64,000 nt of DNA from positions 3,486 through 67,485 of the forward strand of contig CAYICZ010000001.1 in the NCBI GenBank assembly GCA_964362195.1, given 5' to 3'. Below the pieces are notes generated by a model, which was given only the letters and a program-made list of their open reading frames with translations, did not search any database and was not told the DNA's origin. Both the position numbers and the translations under genes were made by a program. The stretch comes from an uncultured Gammaproteobacteria bacterium (GTDB taxonomy: Bacteria; Patescibacteriota; Microgenomatia; Daviesbacterales; UBA10151). Below are positions 4,684-32,760 of the stretch, piece after piece. Positions within the stretch are counted from its first letter, which is position 1, and each line of letters opens with the position of its first letter.

Positions 4684-4963
4684 ACACTCCTTTTGTTACA
4701 AAAAATCCTCTTTCTTTTTTTGAAGCATTTTGCAAAACTTCTTCTTGCGGCAAAGAGGATTCTGTCTCATCTTTCCTCATCACATTTTCCTGCCCTGAAA
4801 CATTAAAAGTAGGCTCCACATCCTTTGTATCAACAGAATTAAGTTGATCCACATATTCTAAAATTTTAGAGAGTTGCTCAGAATAAAGTTCTTCTTCTTT
4901 ATCTGAAAGGGGCAAATTAGCCAGTTTAGCAACATGCTTTACTTGATCTTTAGTTAGTCTCAT
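4670..4963 (-). CDS. gatC: Glu-tRNA(Gln) amidotransferase subunit C
   Basis: 97 aa, [41 protein letters not shown], a GatC-like protein immediately upstream of gatA. Confidence 0.8.
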
Positions 4964-5030
4964 GATATTGACATTTTAAATCTAATCCTTTATTATTATA
5001 TGGCAGTCTGGTAACAGATTGTTATCAACC

Positions 5031-5056
5031 GCCCGTTGTAAAAGACGGGCTTTTTT
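5031..5056 (+). terminator. Intrinsic-terminator-like hairpin GCCCGTTGTAAAAGACGGGC followed by a TTTTTT tract (plus-strand sense only)
   Basis: A perfect 6-bp GC-rich stem with an 8-nt loop, then a T6 tract. On the minus strand an A-tract precedes the hairpin and no U-tract follows it. The hairpin overlaps the stop of the frame-corrected NYN ORF. Confidence 0.3.
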
Positions 5057-5173
5057 ATGGCTTCTTTTCACTTCTTTCGATTTTACTCCTAATTTTGCGT
5101 AAATCCAAATAAAAATCCGCACTCTCAACTAATTCCTTAGCAACATGAAACTTAAGCGAAGCAACTACTACAG

Positions 5174-5611
5174 TTAATGAAAATCGCTATCACCGGAAAA
5201 AAGAATACAATTATCAAATAAGTCTAATCTTTTTATCACATCTACGGCAATTTCTACATCAAAATTGGCTTTGCGTAAATGTCCCCCATCTTTCCTATTT
5301 CTTATGAGCTTAAGATGCTTGGTAATAAGTTTATATCCAGTTCTTTTAAGAAATGTCAGAAAACCATCATGCTCTTTTGTATCAAATCTGGCTGTATAGA
5401 AACCTAAAAAGACTACTTTTATCTGGGTGTTTAACCATTCGGAAAGTTTTCTATAATCCACCTTGAATCCTAAATCTTTAGCAGAAAGTTCAAGATTTGC
5501 AGCATCAATAAAAATCGCAGTTTTACCTTTTAAATTTAAGTGAAATTCCTTTTTTACCACATGTTTTACTTTGTCCCGCCCCAGGTGGACTTGATCTTTA
5601 GATAATTTCAT
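5174..5611 (-). CDS. NYN/LabA-like (PIN-like) domain protein; the reading frame is interrupted at an A4/T4 homopolymer (see findings)
   Basis: Motifs TAIFIDAANL ... FDVEIAVDV ... ILFSGDSDFH are characteristic of NYN/LabA. The ORF stops right after SGDSDF, whereas the domain normally continues; the continuation is readable in the -1 frame from 5055 to 5180. Confidence 0.6.
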   Translation of the reverse strand: MKLSKDQVHLGRDKVKHVVKKEFHLNLKGKTAIFIDAANLELSAKDLGFKVDYRKLSEWLNTQIKVVFLGFYTARFDTKEHDGFLTFLKRTGYKLITKHLKLIRNRKDGGHLRKANFDVEIAVDVIKRLDLFDNCILFSGDSDFH

Positions 5612-5625
5612 ATAGGAGGATTATA

Positions 5626-6552
5626 CTAAACCTTACCTTCCATTTCGCGCAAAGCTTTAACTCTGGCCTCAATTGGAGGATGGGTGTTAAAAAGGCCGGC
5701 CAGCCACTGCTTAGCCTCGTGGCCTTTTAGCGGATTAATAATATAAAGATGAGCTGTTCCTCTGTTTGCCACTTCCAACGGTTCTCTATCTGCAGAAATT
5801 TTTTGTAAAGCACTAGCTAAACCTTGAGGATAACGGGTTAGTAATACTCCTGATGCATCTGCTAAAAATTCCCTTCTTCTGGATACTGCCAGCTGGATTA
5901 GAGTTGCCACGATTGGAGCCAGGATGGCGGCAATAATTGCCACAACCATAATTAAGCCACTGTTTTTATTATCATTATCCCGGTTTCCACCAAACCAGAG
6001 CGATCTCATGAAAAAATCAGAAAGCAAAGCGATCGTTCCCACCAGAACTGAAACCACTGCCATCACTAAAGTATCCCTATTCCCCACATGGGAAAGTTCA
6101 TGGGCAGTCACTCCTTCCAGTTCCTGTTTATTAAGCTTTTCTAAAATTCCTTTAGTAAAAGCAATGGCAGCATGCTTTGGATCACGCCCGGTGGCAAAAG
6201 CATTAGTGGCAGTGTCATCAATAATATAGATCTTTGGAGTTGGCAAACCTGCAGCTATACATAAGTTCTCCACTATTCTATAAACTTGGGGGTTATCTTT
6301 TTGTTGGATTGGTTTGGCTCCGGAAATTCCCAAAACAATCTTATCTGACCAAAAATAGGAAACAAAGTTCATAACTCCTGCCATAATCAGAGCAAATCCC
6401 ACAATGCCTAACCCCCCTACCTCACCATATCCAAACCCCTGGGCTATTACATAAATTACAGCCACAGTGAAAAGGCTGAAAAAAAACATAATCAACCACG
6501 TCTTAAAAACATTTGATCCAACATGATCCCAAGCAGTATTAATAGTAGCCAT
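5626..6552 (-). CDS. htpX: M48-family zinc metalloprotease HtpX homolog
   Basis: An N-terminal TM pair and the HEXXH motif HELSHVGNRD. The overall layout is HtpX-like. Confidence 0.8.
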   Translation of the reverse strand: MATINTAWDHVGSNVFKTWLIMFFFSLFTVAVIYVIAQGFGYGEVGGLGIVGFALIMAGVMNFVSYFWSDKIVLGISGAKPIQQKDNPQVYRIVENLCIAAGLPTPKIYIIDDTATNAFATGRDPKHAAIAFTKGILEKLNKQELEGVTAHELSHVGNRDTLVMAVVSVLVGTIALLSDFFMRSLWFGGNRDNDNKNSGLIMVVAIIAAILAPIVATLIQLAVSRRREFLADASGVLLTRYPQGLASALQKISADREPLEVANRGTAHLYIINPLKGHEAKQWLAGLFNTHPPIEARVKALREMEGKV

Positions 6553-6573: not shown

Positions 6574-6972
6574 TCACTTTTCAAACCAAAGCGGGGTTTT
6601 TGGATTAGATGTACCTTTGTAATTACAATAGATTTCGCAGTCTTTTTTAATATTTTTTATAGCTGTAAATGTAATTGTTTTATCTTTCCTGTTTATATCA
6701 TATTTGCAATTTGGATCTTTTGAGTGATTATATAAAGACCCATATCCTAAGACCAAAGCTACAAAGTCATCCATCCAAAAATAATACTCAAATAATAAAT
6801 TCCATCTTGTTTCAACTAAATCCGTAAATTCCAAAACCAGAATTGGCGCAACTTCAATAACTTCACCTTTTTTAATGTTTTTAGATGCAAATACTCCTCT
6901 TCCGGAATTTAGAATATGGGAATTACTAACGTAAACCTTAGAAGCTAACTTTAACATCAGCCTTTTCATCAT
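6574..6972 (-). CDS. SET-domain protein (putative protein lysine methyltransferase)
   Basis: [18 protein letters not shown] (a GxG SET-N motif), the pseudoknot motif YNHSKDPNC (NHSxxPN), and a C-terminal EIYCNYKG (an ELxxxY-like post-SET Tyr). The start was chosen at the internal Met to limit overlap with lemA. Confidence 0.65.
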
Positions 6973-9207: not shown

Positions 9208-9281
9208 CGGGACCAACCGGACTTGAACCGGCGACCTTCTGATTGACAATCAGACGCTCTAACCAACTGAGCTATGATCCC
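9208..9281 (-). tRNA. tRNA-Asp (anticodon GTC)
   Basis: Minus-strand GGGATCATAGCTCAGTTGGTTAGAGCGTCTGATTGTCAATCAGAAGGTCGCCGGTTCAAGTCCGGTTGGTCCCG folds as a cloverleaf with anticodon loop TTGTCAA. The 3' CCA is not encoded. Confidence 0.8.
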
Positions 9282-10031: not shown

Positions 10032-11648
10032 ATGAAATTAACTCACCATAAATTTAATCTTTTAATATTATCTGTTTTAGTCGTTTTTACCTATGCTTAT
10101 TTTCTAAATAATGCTTTTGTTTCAGATGATATAGCGGAAATTGCAAATAAACCTGAAATTGCCAACTTTTCCAGGATCTTACAATTCCCAACCGGTCCGA
10201 TCAGGCATATTATTTATTTTATTTCAGTACATATTGGGGGATTTAATCCATGGCCTTTTAGACTTTCTAATTTAATATTTCACCTTTTATCTACCTATTT
10301 AATCTATCTAATAATTTTAACCACTTATAAATCAAAAAAGGCTGCCTTTTTTGCATCTTCCTTATTTGCAGTCCATCCGGCTATTTCTGAAGCTGTTCTT
10401 TGGATCTCCGGCGGAATGTATACCCAATATACCTTCTTCTTTTTATTATCTTTTTATCTTTACATTAAGTCTGAGGGGAAAAGAGATTACTGGCTTTCTG
10501 TCTTGTTTTATCTTTTTTCTTTAATGTCCCACCCCCAAATGCCCATTACTCTTTTTGTAATTTATCCTTTATATGATTTTTGTTTCAGAAGGAATTTTAA
10601 GAAAAACTGGGTGCGGGCAATTCCATTTTTAATCCTGAGCTTAGTATATGTGTTCATAAGTTTAGGTGCGCTGCCGGCACGGGAAGCCACTCTGCAAACC
10701 GTTCATTATCAGGAAAAAGGAGTTGATAATATATTTACGCTAATCCCGGTTGCTATCTCATCTTATGCAGAGCTTTTGTTTTTCCCTAAAACTCTGACCT
10801 TGTATCACTCAGAGCTTAATTTTGGCACTATTTCTTTTGCAATAAGGGCAACTTTAACTTTAGTTTTTCTTGCCGGTTTCGTGCTGGCCTTTAAAAAGAG
10901 CCGGCCTGTTTTTTTCTGGCTGTCTTTTTCCTTAATTGCACTTTCATCTACCTTAACCCCTTTTAGATTAAACTGGATTGTTGCTGAGCGGTATATTTAC
11001 CTGCCCAGCATCGGCATCTTTACTCTGGTCGGATTAGGTTTGGATAAATTAATTTTAATTAAGAAAAAAAACAGCAATATAATTCTAGCTGCATTTGTAA
11101 TAATTATACTTTTATTATCTCTTAGGACCTTTATAAGAGGCATTGATTGGGAAAATGAGGATAATCTCTGGATAGCAACCGGTAAAACTTCTCCCTCTTC
11201 CCCAAATACGCATAACAATTTAGGGGATGTTTATGGGCGTCGGGGCGATAAACAAAGAGCTTTAAAAGAGTTTTCAAGGGCCATAGAGTTAAAACCTAAC
11301 TATGCCGATGCTTATCATAATTTGGGAAATACCTACAGGGAAATGGGTAATTTAGAAAAAGCTATGGAAAGCTACCTTATGGCAGCCAGGTTAAATCCTA
11401 ATCTTTGGCAGTCTTATCAAAATATAGCGGCCCTTTATTTCCAGTCAAAACAATACGATCTAGCTCTTCAATATATTCAAAAAGCCATCTCAGTAAATCC
11501 CAAAAATTTAAATCTTTATATTAATTTAGGGGTAGTATACTTGGCAGAGGGAAATAAAGAAAAAGCCAAAGAAGAATTTAGCAAAGTTTTATCAGCTGAC
11601 TCGACAAATCAAGTTGCCCAAGCAGGATATGCTGAGGCAAATAAGTGA
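10032..11648 (+). CDS. TMTC/PMT-like GT-C glycosyltransferase: N-terminal multi-TM domain plus C-terminal TPR repeats
   Basis: About 11 TM helices, with an FVSDD acidic motif in the first loop typical of GT-C enzymes. The C-terminus carries 5-6 TPRs (AIELKPNYADAYHNLGNTYREMGNLEKA ...). Confidence 0.6.
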   Translation: MKLTHHKFNLLILSVLVVFTYAYFLNNAFVSDDIAEIANKPEIANFSRILQFPTGPIRHIIYFISVHIGGFNPWPFRLSNLIFHLLSTYLIYLIILTTYKSKKAAFFASSLFAVHPAISEAVLWISGGMYTQYTFFFLLSFYLYIKSEGKRDYWLSVLFYLFSLMSHPQMPITLFVIYPLYDFCFRRNFKKNWVRAIPFLILSLVYVFISLGALPAREATLQTVHYQEKGVDNIFTLIPVAISSYAELLFFPKTLTLYHSELNFGTISFAIRATLTLVFLAGFVLAFKKSRPVFFWLSFSLIALSSTLTPFRLNWIVAERYIYLPSIGIFTLVGLGLDKLILIKKKNSNIILAAFVIIILLLSLRTFIRGIDWENEDNLWIATGKTSPSSPNTHNNLGDVYGRRGDKQRALKEFSRAIELKPNYADAYHNLGNTYREMGNLEKAMESYLMAARLNPNLWQSYQNIAALYFQSKQYDLALQYIQKAISVNPKNLNLYINLGVVYLAEGNKEKAKEEFSKVLSADSTNQVAQAGYAEANK

Positions 11649-11719
11649 GCCGACTACTGGAATCGAACCAGTGACCTGCTGTTTACGAAACAGCTACTCT
11701 ACCACTGAGCCAAGTCGGC
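11648..11719 (-). tRNA. tRNA-Thr (anticodon CGT)
   Basis: Minus-strand GCCGACTTGGCTCAGTGGTAGAGTAGCTGTTTCGTAAACAGCAGGTCACTGGTTCGATTCCAGTAGTCGGCT. The acceptor stem is perfect, the T-loop is TTCGATT, and the anticodon loop is TTCGTAA. No CCA is encoded. Confidence 0.75.
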
Positions 11720-11725
11720 CTCCTG

Positions 11726-11796
11726 AGCGGGGTACGAGAATTGGACTCGCTTCTCTACCTTGGGAAGGTAGCATACTACCGGTGTACTAACCCCGC
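11726..11796 (-). tRNA. tRNA-Gly (anticodon CCC), with a noncanonical T-loop
   Basis: Minus-strand GCGGGGTTAGTACACCGGTAGTATGCTACCTTCCCAAGGTAGAGAAGCGAGTCCAATTCTCGTACCCCGCT. It has a perfect 7-bp acceptor stem and anticodon stem CTACC/GGTAG with loop TTCCCAA. The T-loop is TCCAATT instead of TTCRANT. Confidence 0.65.
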
Positions 11797-18628: not shown

Positions 18629-18700
18629 TGGACGACGTTGGGATTGAACCAACGGCCTGTCGCATGTGAAGCGACCGCTCTACCACTGAGCTAGTCGTCC
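18629..18700 (-). tRNA. tRNA-Val (anticodon CAC)
   Basis: Minus-strand GGACGACTAGCTCAGTGGTAGAGCGGTCGCTTCACATGCGACAGGCCGTTGGTTCAATCCCAACGTCGTCCA. Anticodon stem GTCGC/GCGAC with loop TTCACAT. Confidence 0.8.
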
Positions 18701-21593: not shown

Positions 21594-22661
21594 TTATTCC
21601 CCTTCTGTGTCAATTCTGCGTTTAAATTTCTCAACTGATGAGATCATACCTAAGGAAAAAAGAGTGGCTATTAAAGAACTGCCACCGTATGAAATTAAAG
21701 GCAAAGTAATACCGGTTATAGGTAATAGCCCCAAATTCATTCCGGTGTTAACAAAGAATTGAAACAAAAGCATAGATAAAGTGCCAAAAATAATTAAAAA
21801 ATTAAATAAATCATTAACCGAAGTGGCAATTTTAATGCAGTAAATAAATAAAAATAAATACAAGGATAAAATAATCAAGGATCCCAAAAATCCCATTTCT
21901 TCGGCAATTGAAGCAAAAATAAAATCAGTTCTAAATTCCGGTAAGAATTGCAATCTTGACTGTGTACCTCTTCCCAATCCTCTTCCGAAAAACTCACCTG
22001 AACCTACAGCAATTGTTGATTGAATTAAGTTATAGCCGCGGCCCAGTGGATCACTGTCAGGGGATAAAAAAGAAGTAATTCTTTGTTTTTGATAATCGTG
22101 CAAAAAAAGCCAGCTTGTTGGAACAATAAATAAAATAATAAGTCCCAGGATTAAAATTTTCTTAAAAGAAACCCGAGCCCCAAACAACATTCCAAACCAG
22201 ATTGCCAAAAGAGATAAAGATGATCCTAAATCCGGTTGTTTAAATATTAAAATTACCAATGGTAAACTTATAAGGAAACTTTTAAAAATACTAATCCAGG
22301 AAGGAAAATTCTTAGACCAGAATTGTGCCAAAAATAATATTAAAACCGGTTTGGCAAATTCTGATGGTTGAATATTAAATATCCCCAGAGGTATCCACCT
22401 GACTGACCCGCGGGCTTCTATTCCTAAAAATAGGACTAAAATTAGTAATAAAACTATTATTATATATAATGGGAAAATTAAATTTTTTATGGATTTAACT
22501 TCGATCTGAGAAATAAAAAAATAAGTTAACAACCCGACAAATGTAAAGACTGTTTGTTGTATTGCAAGCTCTACTGATGAAGAATAAATAACCAAAATTC
22601 CAATAGAAATCAAAAGTAAGCTGCAAAGTAATATTGGAATATTAAATAGTTTAAGAAACAT
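21594..22661 (-). CDS. SEDS-family peptidoglycan glycosyltransferase (FtsW/RodA/SpoVE family; RodA-like second copy)
   Basis: 355 aa, about 10 TM helices, conserved SEDS loop motifs (…GSGEFFGRGLGRGTQSRLQFLPE…). Confidence 0.75.
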   Translation of the reverse strand: MFLKLFNIPILLCSLLLISIGILVIYSSSVELAIQQTVFTFVGLLTYFFISQIEVKSIKNLIFPLYIIIVLLLILVLFLGIEARGSVRWIPLGIFNIQPSEFAKPVLILFLAQFWSKNFPSWISIFKSFLISLPLVILIFKQPDLGSSLSLLAIWFGMLFGARVSFKKILILGLIILFIVPTSWLFLHDYQKQRITSFLSPDSDPLGRGYNLIQSTIAVGSGEFFGRGLGRGTQSRLQFLPEFRTDFIFASIAEEMGFLGSLIILSLYLFLFIYCIKIATSVNDLFNFLIIFGTLSMLLFQFFVNTGMNLGLLPITGITLPLISYGGSSLIATLFSLGMISSVEKFKRRIDTEGE

Positions 22662-28036: not shown

Positions 28037-28771
28037 CTATTTTTTCGGGGCATATTTAACTACGGGTTTATCAAATCTTAAATCGATAAACTCCAGTTTA
28101 CTACTCCCTATTTTAGCTTTCTGCACGATCAGTTGTAAAGATGCAATTTGAATATCTATATCTTCACTTAAATCAAACACTACTTTAGGATTCCCGGATG
28201 TGATGAAGAAATTATTAAAAATGAAAATATGAGAATTATTTAACCCCTGATCTTTTAAAGATTTTAATATACTCAGAGCTTTTGCTAAATAATTATTAAT
28301 AGGTTTATCTCCAAAAAAATAAATTTTTGGTAAAACTAAAGAGTCACCCTTTGAAAAAATTATCCCTTCATCATCAATCAGACTAGGTTCATCTGTCGAA
28401 TTGGCAGAAGGAGTTGCTAAATTTTCAATTAAAGACGAGGCACTTGCTTCCCAATTCTTGATTGAATAAAGTGCAGCTTCAGGAATTCTTCCAATAATAT
28501 CCAACTTAATTTTATCAGGTAAATTTTTGGAGAAATTAATTTTTTTAATACAAATAAAATCCGCTTTAAGAGCTTGTTCTACTCTTTTTTCATCAACAAG
28601 AAAAAAGTTTTGTCCAAAAAGATTAGATTTTTCTGTTAAGTTTTTCTCATCTGTACAATTTATTCTTTCACTTTTGATATCTATTTTTTTAATAGTAAAA
28701 AAATTTGACCTGAAAATTGCAATAAACAATAACAATAAAACAGCTAAAAACAGAACTGACTTTATTCTCAT
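28037..28771 (-). CDS. ftsQ: FtsQ/DivIB-like cell division protein (POTRA)
   Basis: 244 aa with an N-terminal TM helix; positioned between murG and ftsA. Sequence is divergent. Confidence 0.6.
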   Translation of the reverse strand: MRIKSVLFLAVLLLLFIAIFRSNFFTIKKIDIKSERINCTDEKNLTEKSNLFGQNFFLVDEKRVEQALKADFICIKKINFSKNLPDKIKLDIIGRIPEAALYSIKNWEASASSLIENLATPSANSTDEPSLIDDEGIIFSKGDSLVLPKIYFFGDKPINNYLAKALSILKSLKDQGLNNSHIFIFNNFFITSGNPKVVFDLSEDIDIQIASLQLIVQKAKIGSSKLEFIDLRFDKPVVKYAPKK

Positions 28772-29838
28772 ATTTCTTGCTTTACCAAAATAATTGTCTC
28801 CAAAGCTACCCTCTTGGCTGCATCAGGAATTATAATCTCTTTGGCCTTCCTGGCATTTTCTTTTAGTTTTTTAAGATTATCTAACATATTTTTTATATTT
28901 TCATATAGGGTTTTGGCGTTTAATTTTGACTGAGGTAAAATTTTTACCAAACCCAACTCTTCAAAAAATTTAGCATTTTTATTTTGTTCATCCTTATAAA
29001 GATAAGGTATTGGAATAACCAAAGCCGGTAAGCTCAAATAGGCAAGCTCACTTAGTGTATTTATCCCTGCTCTTGAAACTACCAAATCAGCTTGTTTAAG
29101 TCTTCGTCCCCAACCTTCTCCTATCCATTTTTTTACAATATACCTTTGATTTTGCAACTTTTCCAATCTTTCAAAATCACCAAATTTATTATCTCCTGTT
29201 ACATGAGTAATAGATGCTATCTTAGTTAATCTATCTAAAGATTTCTCAATTGCTAAATTAATAACATGTGATCCCTGATTACCTCCTGTCACTAAAATAT
29301 TCACACTTTTTCGGTGATACTGTTTTACGTTATTTATAATTTCTTTTCTAAGAGGGTTACCAGTCAAAATAGCTTTTGGGTTTTTGGTTGGAAAGGACAC
29401 GGCAATTTTATCTGCAAAAAGATTGGAGATTTTATTTGCCAGACCTAAAACTAAAGTCTGTTCATGAACTATAATTGGCACTGATAAAAACCAACCCATA
29501 ACAACTAAAGGAACTGCAATGTATCCTCCGAATGATAAAATCACATCTGGCTTTTGGGAAACAAGAATAAAAAAAGCCTGAATAAATCCTACTGGAATTT
29601 TTAAAAAAGAGATTATAGTATAAGGATCAAAATGTCTTCGCAATCTACCAGCTATGATAGGGATAAATTTTACTCCCATGGATGGTAAAACCTTTGATTC
29701 AACTGAAGATGAATTATCTCCTTCAAGCGTTGTTTTTCTTCCAACATAAATAATCTGGGCAAAGGGCTCCATTTTCAAAAGTTCCTCAATCACTGCAACA
29801 GCAGGAGTAAAATGTGCTCCTGTAATCAATATTTTCAT
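28768..29838 (-). CDS. murG: UDP-GlcNAc:undecaprenyl-PP-MurNAc-pentapeptide GlcNAc transferase MurG
   Basis: MKILITGAHFTPAVAV... (the G-rich N-loop) and TGGNQGSHVIN (the GT28 C-terminal motif). Confidence 0.85.
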   Translation of the reverse strand: MKILITGAHFTPAVAVIEELLKMEPFAQIIYVGRKTTLEGDNSSSVESKVLPSMGVKFIPIIAGRLRRHFDPYTIISFLKIPVGFIQAFFILVSQKPDVILSFGGYIAVPLVVMGWFLSVPIIVHEQTLVLGLANKISNLFADKIAVSFPTKNPKAILTGNPLRKEIINNVKQYHRKSVNILVTGGNQGSHVINLAIEKSLDRLTKIASITHVTGDNKFGDFERLEKLQNQRYIVKKWIGEGWGRRLKQADLVVSRAGINTLSELAYLSLPALVIPIPYLYKDEQNKNAKFFEELGLVKILPQSKLNAKTLYENIKNMLDNLKKLKENARKAKEIIIPDAAKRVALETIILVKQEI

Positions 29839-29854
29839 ACAGGTTTAATTATAC

Positions 29855-29874
29855 CTAAATCTAAGCTGATTGTC
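29855..29874. repeat. Direct repeat copy L (CCTAAATCTAAGCTGATTGT): a duplicated copy of the ftsW 3' terminus including its stop codon
   Basis: 19 of 20 nt identical to 30641-30660. On the minus strand it contains CAATCAGCTTAG, which encodes QSA-stop, the same as the ftsW C-terminus. Confidence 0.65.
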
Positions 29875-29928
29875 AGATAAATAAGGACCAGCCTTGCGAG
29901 GCCAAATCAATTAATCTATACTAAATTT

Positions 29929-30636
29929 ATGCCTGCCAGAAATAGAACAAAACAATATACAGAAAATGGTTATTACCACATCTACAACCGTGGTGTAGAA
30001 AAAAGATTGATATTTATAGACTTGCAGGATTATGCAGTTTTTCTTTCTTATCTTAACGATTATTTAACTCCAAAGAAAGAAAAAGAACTTCAAGATAAAT
30101 TTTCTGGCCCAAATACTTCTTATAAAGAAAAGGCTAGAATTTTAAAATTACTACGCCTAAAAAATTATTCTGACGAAATAACAGTGCTTGCATACTGTCT
30201 AATGCCTAATCACTTTCACTTCTTCCTAAAACAAAAAAACAAATATTCTATCAATCAATTCCTGCATTCAATATGTACAAGATACACTATGTATTTTAAT
30301 AGAAAACATAAAAGAATAGGTCCATTGTATCAGGACATCTATAAAGCAGTCTCAATTGATCATGAAGAACAATTCATTTACTTATCAAAATATATCCATA
30401 AACAGGCACTTTCTCACAAAAAATCTCCAAGCTCAAAAGAACCAGCCTTACGAGGCTACGAACAACAACCTTCCTCTTATCCTGAATACTTGGGAGAAAG
30501 AAAAACTGACTGGATCCATCCGGAAGATGTATTAAATTATTTTTCCAAAACGAATCCTAAACTTTCATATAAAGCATTTGTAGAGGAAATTGGCGATGAT
30601 TTTTCAATTATACAAAATGAGCTATTGGAGGATTAA
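29929..30636 (+). CDS. tnpA: IS200-like / REP-associated tyrosine transposase (Y1 HuH transposase, TnpA/RAYT-like) with a C-terminal extension
   Basis: YHIYNRGVEKRLIF (N-terminal motif), CLMPNHFHFFL (HuH motif) and GPLYQDIYKAV (catalytic Tyr region). At 235 aa it is longer than typical TnpA. Confidence 0.75.
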   Translation: MPARNRTKQYTENGYYHIYNRGVEKRLIFIDLQDYAVFLSYLNDYLTPKKEKELQDKFSGPNTSYKEKARILKLLRLKNYSDEITVLAYCLMPNHFHFFLKQKNKYSINQFLHSICTRYTMYFNRKHKRIGPLYQDIYKAVSIDHEEQFIYLSKYIHKQALSHKKSPSSKEPALRGYEQQPSSYPEYLGERKTDWIHPEDVLNYFSKTNPKLSYKAFVEEIGDDFSIIQNELLED

Positions 30637-30640
30637 GATT

Positions 30641-30660
30641 CCTAAAACTAAGCTGATTGT
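30641..30660. repeat. Direct repeat copy R (CCTAAAACTAAGCTGATTGT), overlapping the last codons and stop of ftsW
   Basis: Near-identical to copy L at 29855-29874. Confidence 0.65.
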
Positions 30661-31745
30661 TTGGAAATGTTAAGCAGGATTCCAACAGCGGCCAGATTGG
30701 CAACTAATGCTGAGCCACCATAGGAAATAAAGGGCAGAGGTACGCCTGTTAACGGAAGGAGTGCAGTCATAGCAGAGAGATTAATCACCACCTGAATCCC
30801 CAGCCAGCTAATTAATCCTAAGGCTAAAATTTTTCCAAAATTATCAGGACAATTTGTGGCAATTTTAAAACCCCGATGCATTAATATCCCAAAAAGAGTA
30901 ATTAAAAAAAGCCCTCCTAGCAAACCCAGCTCTTCTCCAATAATTCCAAATATAGAATCTGTGATAACCTCAGGAATATATTCAAATTTTTGTCTTGAAT
31001 GACCCAAACCTAATCCAAATAAACCTCCGGAACCTAAGGCGATCAGGACTTGGGATATATGGTAGGTAAATCCTTGCGGATCAGAAAAAGGATCTAAAAA
31101 AGCCGCAATTCTTTTGCTCCTATAACCTGAGGTAAATATCAATACCAATAATCCTCCAACCATAAATGGTATGGCTGCTAAAAAATGCCAAAGCGGACCA
31201 TAGCTGACAAAATATAAGACAGTTGATATAGCAACAAAAACAATAGCAGAACCCAAATCTTTTTGCAAAACAGCAGTAATAAAAGTAACTATTCCTACAA
31301 GGACAATAAAAGGCATAAGCCGTACTTTTTTCTCAAAAATACTCGCCAAAAAAATCACACTTGTTAGCTTGATAATCTCCGCAGGTTGCAATGTTAATGG
31401 TCCCAAGCGTAGCCACCTGTGAGCTCCCCCACCTGAAACTCCCAAACCAGGTATAAAAACAGCCAGCAATAGGATTAGGGAGAAACCTAACATCGGGAAA
31501 GCTAAACTTTTAAATTTTTTATAATCAAAGCTGGAAAAAAAAAACATGGAAAACAAACCAATTAAAACCCAGATTAATTGTTGCCTTATGTAATAAGTGC
31601 CATCCTTAAAATCTTTAAGCGCTTGAATAACAGAAGCGTCGTATACCATAATTAATCCGAAAATTACTAAAATGCCTACAACAATTAATAGAGGATAGTC
31701 AATATTTTTATTTTGTAACTTCAGACGATCTTTTGAAAACTCCAT
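30648..31745 (-). CDS. ftsW: Cell division SEDS protein FtsW
   Basis: Multi-TM SEDS protein sitting between mraY and murG. The start was chosen at MEFSKDRL to avoid overlap with mraY. Confidence 0.8.
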   Translation of the reverse strand: MEFSKDRLKLQNKNIDYPLLIVVGILVIFGLIMVYDASVIQALKDFKDGTYYIRQQLIWVLIGLFSMFFFSSFDYKKFKSLAFPMLGFSLILLLAVFIPGLGVSGGGAHRWLRLGPLTLQPAEIIKLTSVIFLASIFEKKVRLMPFIVLVGIVTFITAVLQKDLGSAIVFVAISTVLYFVSYGPLWHFLAAIPFMVGGLLVLIFTSGYRSKRIAAFLDPFSDPQGFTYHISQVLIALGSGGLFGLGLGHSRQKFEYIPEVITDSIFGIIGEELGLLGGLFLITLFGILMHRGFKIATNCPDNFGKILALGLISWLGIQVVINLSAMTALLPLTGVPLPFISYGGSALVANLAAVGILLNISKQSA

Positions 31746-31749
31746 AAAA

Positions 31750-32760
31750 TTATCTAGATAGTAGTGCAATCCAAAGGCCAAAGATTGCAAAAAGGCCCTG
31801 GGCCAACCAAAACCTGGCAACTATTTTTGGTTCTTCCCAACCAATATATTTAAAATACATATGGATAGGGGATACTGGAAATAATTTTTTCTTTATAATT
31901 TTTTTGGAAAGTATTTGCAACAGCGACGAACCAACTATTACAACAAACATACCGCCAATAATCGCCAGAGCTAAAATTTTTCCTGTTAAAAGTCCAACAA
32001 CTGCCAGAGTTGCACCAAAAGCAAACGCTCCGGCATCTCCCAAAAAAATCCTGGCAGGCCAAACATTAAAATAAAGGTAAGCAAAAAGCGCCCCAATCCA
32101 AATCCCAGCAAAAGAGGCTAAAGTTAAATCCAGAAACGTTGAAGTTAAAGCGAGAAAAGCAAATAAACAAATCAACAAAAGCCCTGCAGATAAACCATCT
32201 AATCCATCGGAAATATTATAGGCATTAGAAAAAGCAACTATGGTAAATGCTGCCAAAGGAATATACCAAATACCTATTATCAGATTTCCCAAGCCGGCAA
32301 TATACAAATTATTAAGCCCCCCTAAAAAATAAAGCATTGAAGCAATAGCCAGGGCAAAAATCGACTGAATTAATAGCATTCTTTTTCTGCCAAGTCCAAG
32401 AAATTTTCCTTTTCTTCTGGTAATAATCAGCTTAATATCATCAACCATTCCCAAAGATCCAAAAGAAATTAGGGTAATAAGTAAAATACTTAAGCTAATT
32501 TTATCTACATCAGGACTGAATAAAGAATATCCAATGCTAAGTAATATTAAAACCAAAATCAAAAGTATTCCTCCTCCAGATGGAGTATTCTCATCAGATT
32601 TCATAAGAGCATCATGAATTGGAGTATCTGATTGTTTTAAATCACTTTTATTTTGTTTCCCAAAGCGGCGCTTTAAATAGAAAAGGAAGTCAATAAAAGG
32701 CACCATAAAAATGCCGGTAATTACAAACGATAATATAACCAAACCTAAAAGACTTGTCAT
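31750..32760 (-). CDS. mraY: Phospho-N-acetylmuramoyl-pentapeptide transferase MraY
   Basis: 336 aa, 10 TM helices, motifs NAYNISDGLDGL and DDxxD-like VDDIKL. Confidence 0.9.
   Translation of the reverse strand: MTSLLGLVILSFVITGIFMVPFIDFLFYLKRRFGKQNKSDLKQSDTPIHDALMKSDENTPSGGGILLILVLILLSIGYSLFSPDVDKISLSILLITLISFGSLGMVDDIKLIITRRKGKFLGLGRKRMLLIQSIFALAIASMLYFLGGLNNLYIAGLGNLIIGIWYIPLAAFTIVAFSNAYNISDGLDGLSAGLLLICLFAFLALTSTFLDLTLASFAGIWIGALFAYLYFNVWPARIFLGDAGAFAFGATLAVVGLLTGKILALAIIGGMFVVIVGSSLLQILSKKIIKKKLFPVSPIHMYFKYIGWEEPKIVARFWLAQGLFAIFGLWIALLSR

Follow-up and report, generated by a model that had tools for sequence, protein, structure and literature searches.

A RAYT-like Y1 gene resident between ftsW and murG in a CPR cell-division cluster, and the duplicated junction that brackets it

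In contig CAYICZ010000001.1 (assembly GCA_964362195.1, positions 3,486 to 67,485 of the forward strand), the division and cell wall (dcw) gene cluster carries a gene of the HUH/Y1 transposase family between ftsW and murG, on the opposite strand and bracketed by two copies of a short direct repeat. The whole stretch of 64,000 nucleotides that was analysed is called the window in the following, and all coordinates refer to it. The locus raises the question of what such a gene is doing inside an essential operon. An earlier note on this DNA mainly read it as an active insertion sequence (IS) of the IS200/IS605 type that had produced an unusual target-site duplication (TSD), and offered as an alternative a domesticated element resembling the RAYT proteins. 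The explanation that accounts best for the whole, and that we consider probable, is a resident RAYT-like cassette which has probably lost its mobility and whose protein is still used, while the repeat is a duplicated ftsW-murG junction, made by recombination and now forming part of a murG promoter. RAYT-type Y1 genes are textbook examples of domesticated transposases, and their benefit to the host is an open question. The main features of the locus are as follows.

28768 to 29838, minus strand: murG, 356 amino acids (aa), with Pfam matches to Glyco_transf_28 and Glyco_tran_28_C; the first gene downstream of the insertion.
29851 to 29873: left repeat copy, apparently left over from the ancestral ftsW 3' end and junction, now the spacer of a putative murG promoter.
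29874 to 30637, plus strand: inserted segment of 764 bp (hairpin remnant, putative Y1 promoter and Y1 gene), bounded by the repeat and missing from the empty sites of related loci L170 and L171.
29929 to 30636, plus strand: Y1/HUH open reading frame (ORF) of 235 aa, with a Pfam Y1_Tnp match of 44.7 bits and its HUH and tyrosine motifs aligned with ISDra2 TnpA.
30638 to 30660: right repeat copy, the native ftsW 3' end (codons KQSA and the stop TAG) with 10 nt of old junction.
30648 to 31745, minus strand: ftsW (SEDS family), with a Pfam FTSW_RODA_SPOVE match of 333 bits; a 365-aa gene call in locus L001.

The minus strand carries murA, a Mur ligase gene, mraY, ftsW, murG, ftsQ, ftsA and ftsZ, all with clear Pfam matches, and the Y1 ORF is the only plus-strand ORF with a domain match, in agreement with its first description as a lone plus-strand gene. 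It converges with ftsW, the two stop codons lying 11 nt apart, and the ftsW stop is separated from the murG ATG by 809 nt. The identical arrangement was found at 100% identity in three separate assemblies, which rules out an assembly artefact. Relatives were sampled as 80 loci from species-representative genomes and 80 from metagenomes, and are labelled here by L-numbers. The comparison of the ftsW-murG junction with these relatives, proposed in the earlier note, turned up two empty sites and so demonstrates the insertion: in L170 ftsW and murG are 1 nt apart (TAA-G-ATG), and in L171 they are 15 nt apart (TATATAATTTAACCT).

The ORF encodes a genuine HUH/Y1 protein. Pfam PF01797 (Y1_Tnp) matches residues 68-159 with 44.7 bits against a cut-off of 23 (E = 1.8e-11), the HUH motif is H95-F-H97 (30211-30219), and the catalytic tyrosine is Y155 (30391-30393), followed by Q159 (30403-30405). 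Neither H95-F-H97 nor Y155-I-H-K-Q159 varies among 20 aligned homologues. A PDB sequence search with the family profile aligned the HUH motif with HVH of ISDra2 TnpA and Y155 with the tyrosine of its YIESQ motif, at a marginal E of 0.64 that is used for the motif register only. The HUH and tyrosine motifs thus hold on proper alignment, but the catalytic tyrosine lies in YIHKQ and not in GPLYQDIY, to which it had been assigned initially. The protein ends in a C-terminal tail with an SS motif (PSSY), and Pfam detected no helix-turn-helix (HTH) domain in it. In the AlphaFold model residues 10-165 form a confident core, and residues 165-179 and the tail are of low confidence. The top ten Foldseek matches in the PDB comprised nine chains of IS200/IS605-type Y1 transposases and the E. 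coli RAYT structure 4er8, which had the highest probability (0.98) and TM-score of all.

About 6,900 homologues of this protein are detectable. They make up a large family, spread across bacteria of the candidate phyla radiation (CPR) and resembling the class-2 TnpA_Y1 (RAYT) proteins; a literature search found no paper describing this CPR clade. By the names attached to homologues, the groundwater bacterium that carries the window is probably a member of Candidatus Daviesbacteria, in the Microgenomates group of the CPR. The typical unit of the family consists, in this order, of a cognate palindromic hairpin, a promoter, an HUH/Y1 ORF of ~230 aa and a matching hairpin at the stop codon, the upstream hairpin lying ~35 nt before the ATG and the downstream one beginning at the stop codon itself. 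Matching hairpins in these two positions are present in most of 83 genome loci, and in 87 loci whose flanks were long enough a word of 12 nt or more, usually the hairpin, recurs on both sides of the gene. The general form of the hairpin is TAGCCTCGCAAGG-N5-CCTTGCGAGGCTA with a base-paired foot and only an occasional GTAG (in L006, for example, TAGCCTCGCAAGG-TCGAA-CCTTGCAAGGCTA), and intact copies fold at -11 to -22 kcal/mol with z between -5.7 and -11. The palindrome varies between elements and matches within an element.

A further copy of the hairpin is often carried in frame inside the ORF itself, in a variable linker after the catalytic tyrosine, where it encodes the consensus QGxTLQGW, and its loop sequence changes in step with those of the upstream and downstream copies. 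In 88 of 153 elements the flank hairpin and the ORF of the same element have a word of at least 12 nt in common, and in 66 one of at least 16 nt; when each flank was paired instead with the ORF of another element, as a control, these counts fell to 8 and 1 of 153. Several proteins (L044, L045, L047, L051, L053, L033 and L057) carry an internal copy in a second variable linker, at codons ~50-64, and two (L041 and L034) carry one at each site. In L022 the downstream hairpin (~6705-6790) is split by a nested GC-rich palindrome of ~40 nt (GCCCGCCTGCTATCGC...GCGATGGCGGGC) that resembles a small inserted element. Cognate hairpins, solo or paired, also stand kilobases away from the Y1 gene in L081 (~3200, 3260, 7190 and 7260) and in L048 (~130 and 730), the closest approach to a dispersed population of repetitive extragenic palindromes (REPs) or REPINs seen in the family.

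Measured against this architecture, the window copy retains two incomplete hairpins.

29883 to 29902, plus strand: upstream hairpin remnant AAGG-ACCAG-CCTTGCGAGGC, with inner stem, loop and right arm kept and the outer left arm decayed.
30437 to 30456, plus strand: hairpin loop and right arm in frame in the ORF, encoding K-E-P-A-L-R-G, with 18/20 identity to 29883-29902.

They were recognised through a 15-nt word, CCAGCCTTRCGAGGC, which occurs exactly twice in the window (29888-29902 and 30442-30456) where 0.03 occurrences are expected, and which, read against the family, corresponds to the loop and right arm of the cognate hairpin AAGG-ACCAG-CCTTGCGAGGC. At the upstream position relatives carry the full TAGCCTCGCAAGG-N5-CCTTGCGAGGCTA. 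The window remnant there folds at -3.3 kcal/mol (z ~ -1), no better than shuffled sequence, and the internal copy, which lies in the linker modelled with low confidence (residues 165-179), folds at -4.2 kcal/mol; in L085, a locus with the same type of junction as the window, a 9-bp upstream stem is retained and folds at -10.9 kcal/mol. No downstream hairpin is present at the window Y1 gene. Because the downstream hairpin is absent and the upstream one half decayed, the cassette is without the two ends that a hairpin-guided single-strand peel-and-paste reaction needs, and it can probably no longer move itself. On the operon strand the two remnants, followed by T-rich runs, give weak terminator-like calls (29888-29905 and 30443-30458, minus strand), which could damp ftsW read-through across the antisense Y1 gene; given their weakness and the many G-T pairs in them, we claim no function for these sites.

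What is left of the upstream hairpin may have acquired a second role, as part of a promoter.

29894 to 29922, plus strand: putative Y1 promoter, -35 TTGCGA (in the right arm of the hairpin), 17 nt, -10 TATACT; 9/12 consensus positions.

The ATG of the Y1 gene follows 6 nt after the -10 box, and a matching layout was found by the promoter scan in L169 and by eye in most relatives. Its use as a -35 box may be the reason for the survival of the right arm, and the Y1 protein, by binding to the upstream site, could control its own promoter.

The same slot is occupied by a member of the family, always divergent from murG, in about 20 loci.

Occupied loci: L012, L084-L088, L090, L091, L093-L095, L098, L099, L104, L125, L168, L169 and L172-L174.

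The MurG proteins of these loci are 56-80% identical to that of the window. With the slot filled across about 20 relatives, some of them with a MurG only 56% identical, the insertion is not recent in this lineage. None of the occupied dcw loci has a matching downstream hairpin, a partial remnant just past the stop codon being kept in L012 and L094, and all of them keep the upstream and internal copies, which co-vary by lineage (ACCAG, GGCCTGGCC, GGTCGGACC, GGAGACTCC and others). In six loci, which we call type B (the window, L084-L086, L172 and L174), a relic of an ftsW end precedes murG, and in most others (type A) murG is preceded by TTGAAC-17-TAGAAT or by the same -35 box with TATGAT.

The Y1 ORF is under strong purifying selection. 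The ratio of nonsynonymous to synonymous divergence (dN/dS) of the dcw copies is 0.06-0.11 where it can be estimated, at synonymous distances of ~0.4 to near saturation, and between the window and L086 the Y1 protein is 82% identical, compared with 66-71% for MurG, FtsW, the Mur ligase and MurA and 78% for MraY. From the intact ORF, the retention of the HUH motif and catalytic tyrosine, and the strength of the selection, we infer that the protein is still used. Judged by IS608 TnpA and E. coli TnpA_REP, it would be a hairpin-specific single-strand DNA nuclease and ligase, working in trans or on its own two half-sites. The domesticated RAYT-like alternative of the earlier note fits better than an active IS.

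The second part of the question concerns the repeat. It had been described as 20 bp with 19 identities, and this stands for a 20-nt core, the left copy of which lies one position away from where it was first placed (29854-29873, against 30641-30660); the full extent is 23 nt with 21 matches (29851-29873 against 30638-30660), and the two copies are flush with both ends of the inserted segment. A pattern search of the 64 kb allowing up to 3 mismatches returned these two sites only, and 0 of 100 shuffles gave two matches. A local alignment of the murG-Y1 spacer with the ftsW end scored 22, where the maximum among 500 shuffles was 16. The shuffle tests and expected counts rule out a chance origin for the repeat and for the 15-nt word alike. 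The right copy, which consists of the KQSA codons, the TAG and 10 nt beyond and is therefore the ftsW 3' end as first proposed, aligns as orthologous with the ftsW ends of L088, L170 and L171. The left copy, together with the following TATAATTAAACCTGT-ATG, aligns both with the junction at the L171 empty site and with the one at the ftsW end in L088; its TAG relic is the feature that lies 22 nt upstream of the murG ATG, the distance given originally for the copy itself. These alignments indicate that the left copy with TATAATTAAACCTGT-ATG represents the ancestral ftsW-end/murG junction, and, because both copies align with the empty sites and the L088 junction, that the 23 bp are a duplicated piece of the target and no footprint of Y1 transposition.

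The earlier note had rightly regarded a flanking duplication as atypical for this class of enzymes, and had suggested that it might mark a different mechanism of insertion. Target duplications were sought beside the hairpin-bounded relatives, and apart from a few extra hairpin copies the flanks contained words at chance level only. Since the flanks of nearly all these relatives are without a significant repeat, TSD formation is not a property of the family, and the repeat does not testify to an unusual transposition reaction. The absence of TSDs in the family and the loss of the ends of the cassette make Y1 transposition an unlikely source of the repeat.

A more plausible source is indicated by the mixed ancestry of the locus. 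By MurG the window is closest to the type A loci L168, L169 and L088 (77-80%), and by Y1 to type B genomes (82-90%). Synonymous p-distances disagree in the same way: between the window and L084 the value is 0.33 for Y1, 0.66 for murG and 0.47 for ftsW; between the window and L085, Y1 stands at 0.53 and the flanks at 0.70-0.72; and between the window and L088, Y1 stands at 0.645 and the flanks at 0.51-0.55, so that Y1 diverges less than its flanks from L084 and L085 and more than its flanks from L088. The disagreement extends into the gene. Codons 1-160 show a synonymous divergence of 0.275 to L084 and 0.731 to L088, whereas codons 178-235 show 0.537 and 0.478, respectively; the nucleotide identities of the N-terminal part are 92.9% to L084, 75.6% to L088 and 73.5% to L169, and those of the C-terminal part 83.6%, 86.0% and 86.5%. 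The density of mismatches to L084 drops sharply at ~29830, near the murG start codon, and rises at ~30410, by the internal hairpin copy. A breakpoint inside murG was also considered and rejected: identity in 60-column blocks shows no clear switch, and beyond column ~120 the MurG sequences nearest to that of the window are those of L168, L169 and L088.

Because the N- and C-terminal parts disagree in their divergence to L084 and L088, the window Y1 gene is a chimera, with an apparent breakpoint at the internal hairpin. On these comparisons the murG-side junction and the catalytic module share type B ancestry, and the C-terminal module and the ftsW side follow the host. Since the gene is mosaic, the duplication most likely arose by recombination. 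Had two alleles carried insertion junctions 23 bp apart, a crossover between them within Y1 would have duplicated the intervening stretch; alternatively, the cassette could have been captured in one step by illegitimate recombination at a staggered break, a route that is possible and that the present sequences do not separate from the first.

The duplication has probably not remained idle, because the left copy takes part in a promoter-like site just ahead of murG.

29848 to 29876, minus strand: putative murG promoter, -35 CTGACA (29876-29871), 17-nt spacer, -10 TATAAT (29853-29848); 11/12 consensus positions.

The site ends 9 nt before the murG ATG, and its -35 box straddles the boundary of the repeat, its first half (CTG) being part of the insert and its second half (ACA) part of the repeat. 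A TATAAT box also stands at the empty site of L171, where the promoter scan calls no site that uses it. At the level of consensus, then, the internal promoter for murG-ftsQAZ postulated earlier is present. Hybrid promoters created by the insertion of mobile DNA are a general phenomenon; in the window a -35 box built at the joint of insert and target would be paired with a -10 box that already existed in the target, as judged by consensus match only. Both copies of the repeat would accordingly be kept with a job to do, the right one ending ftsW and the left one forming, together with the insert, a near-consensus promoter that would drive murG-ftsQAZ and replace the lost co-transcription with ftsW.

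Several observations weigh against this account of a resident, domesticated RAYT-like cassette with a recombination-made duplication. The protein fails both curated NCBIfam cut-offs: the RAYT model NF047646, its best match there, scores 36.7 bits where 80 are required, and the IS200 model NF033573 scores 14 bits where 55 are required. The structural model is of medium quality only (mean pLDDT 68.9) and the Foldseek E-values are ~0.01-0.03. As no cognate hairpin copy occurs elsewhere in the 64-kb window, a substrate for the protein in trans is not in evidence there, and solo hairpins more than 250 nt from a Y1 gene were found in only 7 of 37 long related loci; a role in the spreading of REPs is thus without demonstration. 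Both promoters are called by match to the consensus alone. Only ~33 synonymous sites underlie the mosaic signal of the C-terminal part, and at single-base resolution the breakpoint is blurred. The left relic is significantly similar to its own ftsW end in the window alone and not in L085 or L086, so that the age of the duplication is uncertain. A codon-level reading of the relics of L085, L086, L172 and L174 as ftsW-like ends is suggestive, and with its few sites nothing has been built on it.

The best-surviving competitor keeps the duplication and changes its origin. It supposes a true target duplication made in one step by host repair, the Y1 cassette having been captured at a staggered break, or through one-sided homology with illegitimate joining, and the 23-nt overhang then filled in, with the mosaic added by later exchange between lineages. 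Copies flush with the ends of the insert are what such an event would leave, the left copy with its junction and murG reproduces an intact empty-site junction, and the type B loci L084, L172, L174, L085 and L086 carry a relic resembling an ftsW end at the matching position. However, the relics of L085 and L086 are not significantly similar to their own ftsW ends, and the left and right parts of the cassette differ in history, so that the two copies need not stem from a single event in a single genome. Furthermore, the two window copies differ from each other at 2 of 23 positions, compared with 4 of 23 between the left relics of the window and L172, which suggests conversion or a later reset. 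We regard this one-step origin as possible and, on balance, doubtful.

A bolder proposal takes the in-frame hairpin as a working recombination site of the Y1 enzyme. It draws on a feature of the relatives that the window does not share, namely single cargo genes between the Y1 3' end and ftsW, which differ from locus to locus while the remaining dcw cluster is conserved.

Cargo slots: L084 1238-1795; L172 1012-1578; L088 1912-2683; L169 683-1456; L173 3706-4056; L093 and L012 (Y1-ftsW gap); L125; L094.

These genes encode a GNAT acetyltransferase, an NAD-epimerase-like protein, a HAD-like hydrolase, a PRT-like protein, a LysE-like membrane protein, a cupin and an unknown ORF of 257 aa; the slot is free of cargo in the window, L085, L086 and L091. 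According to the proposal, the promoter and catalytic module, from the upstream to the internal hairpin, would be exchanged between lineages by hairpin-guided strand transfer, and the slot by the Y1 3' end would capture single genes, seven unrelated ones being accounted for in this way, which would make the locus a small domesticated site of gene exchange in a CPR cell-division operon. It would explain both the co-variation of upstream and internal hairpins in copies that do not move and the break of the chimera at the internal hairpin. The arrival of cargo as hairpin-bounded cassettes is unsupported: hairpin relics bounding the cargo genes were sought and none was found, a remnant just past the Y1 stop being present in L094 and L012 only. 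We hold the proposal to be unlikely.

We consider very improbable the reading with which the locus was first presented, that of an active IS200/IS605-type element that entered the ftsW-murG spacer by an unusual mechanism and left a 20-23-bp TSD. The ORF is indeed homologous to Y1/HUH transposases, a significant direct repeat does bracket the insert, and relatives with empty sites exist. Against membership in this group stand the 14 bits obtained where the IS200 model asks for 55, the lack of tnpB, the missing right-end hairpin and the half-decayed left-end one. Moreover, the flanks of nearly all hairpin-bounded relatives are without a significant repeat, paralogues within one genome are only 37-69% identical and so give no sign of recent bursts of transposition, and the slot is occupied in genomes whose MurG is only 56-80% identical to that of the window.

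That the ORF is a functionless relic of a dead element, undecayed so far and with incidental motif pairs and promoter match, as the decayed end hairpins and the lack of cognate hairpins elsewhere in the window might suggest, is hardly credible in view of an ORF intact in about 20 diverged loci, a dN/dS of 0.06-0.11 over synonymous distances of ~0.4 to near saturation, invariant catalytic residues, a Y1 protein that between the window and L086 has changed less than MurG, FtsW, the Mur ligase and MurA, and upstream and internal hairpins that co-vary by lineage in the dcw-resident copies.

The resident cassette can be placed more closely by comparison with known systems. Class 2 of the TnpA_Y1 family comprises the TnpA_REP/RAYT proteins (Quentin et al. 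2018, PMC6006769), whose paralogues within a genome are reported to be divergent, as those of the CPR family are. The CPR family shares with them the HUH core with a single catalytic tyrosine and the C-terminal tail with its SS motif, a gene flanked by its own cognate palindromes in the manner of a REPtron (throughout the family, the window keeping remnants only), low copy number with divergent paralogues, and long-term residence at one chromosomal position under purifying selection; 4er8 is also its best structural match by probability and TM-score. The history of the Y1 gene is, however, partly decoupled from that of its flanks. It differs in scoring below the NCBIfam RAYT cut-off (36.7 against 80 bits), in hairpins that have no unpaired 5' GT[AG]G foot but a base-paired TAGCC...GGCTA one, in that no abundant dispersed REPs were seen (none in the 64 kb, and solo copies in 7 of 37 long related loci), and in its hosts, CPR bacteria being without mention in the RAYT/TnpA_Y1 literature that was found. 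The tyrosine motif of RAYT/TnpA_REP is Y---NP, whereas the clade of the window has YIHKQ(A/T), that is Y---Q as in class 1, and distant members have YIHRNP or YIHLNP.

Within class 2 the protein motifs appear closest to subclass 2.1 (Bertels group 1, TIRYT), membership being judged from the published motifs and not with the hidden Markov models of the authors. The length of ~230-240 aa (published ~238), the NH[YF]H motif (NHFH here) and the SS tail agree with Table 1 of that survey (PMC6006769), as do an FQ-type motif in place of WQ (LYQ or LFQ here) and Y[IV]HLNP in distant members (PMC6006769). Subclass 2.1 was reported to be without REP-like hairpins and to include members with HTH or DnaA-like C-terminal domains (PMC6006769), whereas the CPR family has clear cognate hairpins and no Pfam HTH. 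In-frame REP insertions in tnpA_REP have been reported only for subclass 2.4 (Bertels group 4), whose hosts are mainly Cyanobacteria and Bacteroidetes and whose REPs have GT[AG]G feet (PMC6006769). With this subclass the CPR family has in common a cognate hairpin within the transposase gene, in a surface or linker region and with the frame kept (PMC6006769). It is set apart by a main internal site that follows the catalytic tyrosine (codons ~160-175), by the second site at codons ~50-64 in some subfamilies, and by the coincidence of the window internal copy with a recombination breakpoint.

The likeness to IS200/IS605 TnpA proteins (IS608, ISDra2, IS200) extends to the Y1 HUH fold with aligned HUH and Y...Q motifs and, in members of the CPR family, to subterminal hairpins on both sides and the absence of target duplications. 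In contrast, the score of the IS200 model is far below its cut-off, tnpB is lacking, the protein is ~80 aa longer and has a C-terminal extension, and no near-identical multicopy elements were seen, paralogues being 37-69% identical and the 64-kb window holding one copy. The window copy, in addition, is without one end and half of the other and is bracketed by the 23-bp repeat.

The locus thus brings to light a CPR-wide RAYT-like family with flanking and in-frame cognate hairpins that the TnpA_Y1 surveys found do not cover, one lineage of which is fixed in the essential dcw operon of genomes of ~1 Mb, where the purging of useless DNA would be expected. Of the presumed recognition sites of the enzyme two mapped half-sites are left here, in the promoter and in the coding sequence of the Y1 gene itself; the locus also has a probable insertion-made promoter for murG-ftsQAZ, naturally occurring empty sites and a mosaic breakpoint whose position is mapped. 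Should the hairpin in the ORF indeed be a recombination site, HUH enzymes would have a means of shuffling their catalytic modules. Annotators should note that calls of IS200-like transposases in CPR genomes mostly refer to this RAYT-like family and not to insertion sequences.

Distant members of the family are found at other positions of the dcw cluster, in the murG-ftsA gap and on the operon strand in two Woesebacteria loci (L047 6001-6678 and L050 6001-6654), and next to ftsZ in L133 (116-796), which hints at a recurrent association with the cluster. For the window ftsW an alternative start exists at a TTG (31820, the longest ORF), which would create an overlap of 71 nt with mraY (31750-31820); the shorter form beginning at the ATG at 31745, the start used in public assemblies and 4 nt past the mraY stop, is more plausible. 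An Rfam scan of the entire window returned four tRNA genes only, all on the minus strand (9208-9281, 11648-11719, 11726-11796 and 18629-18700, two of them 6 nt apart), and nothing at the Y1 locus. A second paralogue of the FtsW/RodA family lies a few kilobases past ftsZ (21627-22409, minus strand), with 36% identity to the dcw ftsW by tblastn. In L168, whose MurG is the second most similar to that of the window (79%), a gene of the phage integrase family (4893-5903) stands directly downstream of ftsZ.

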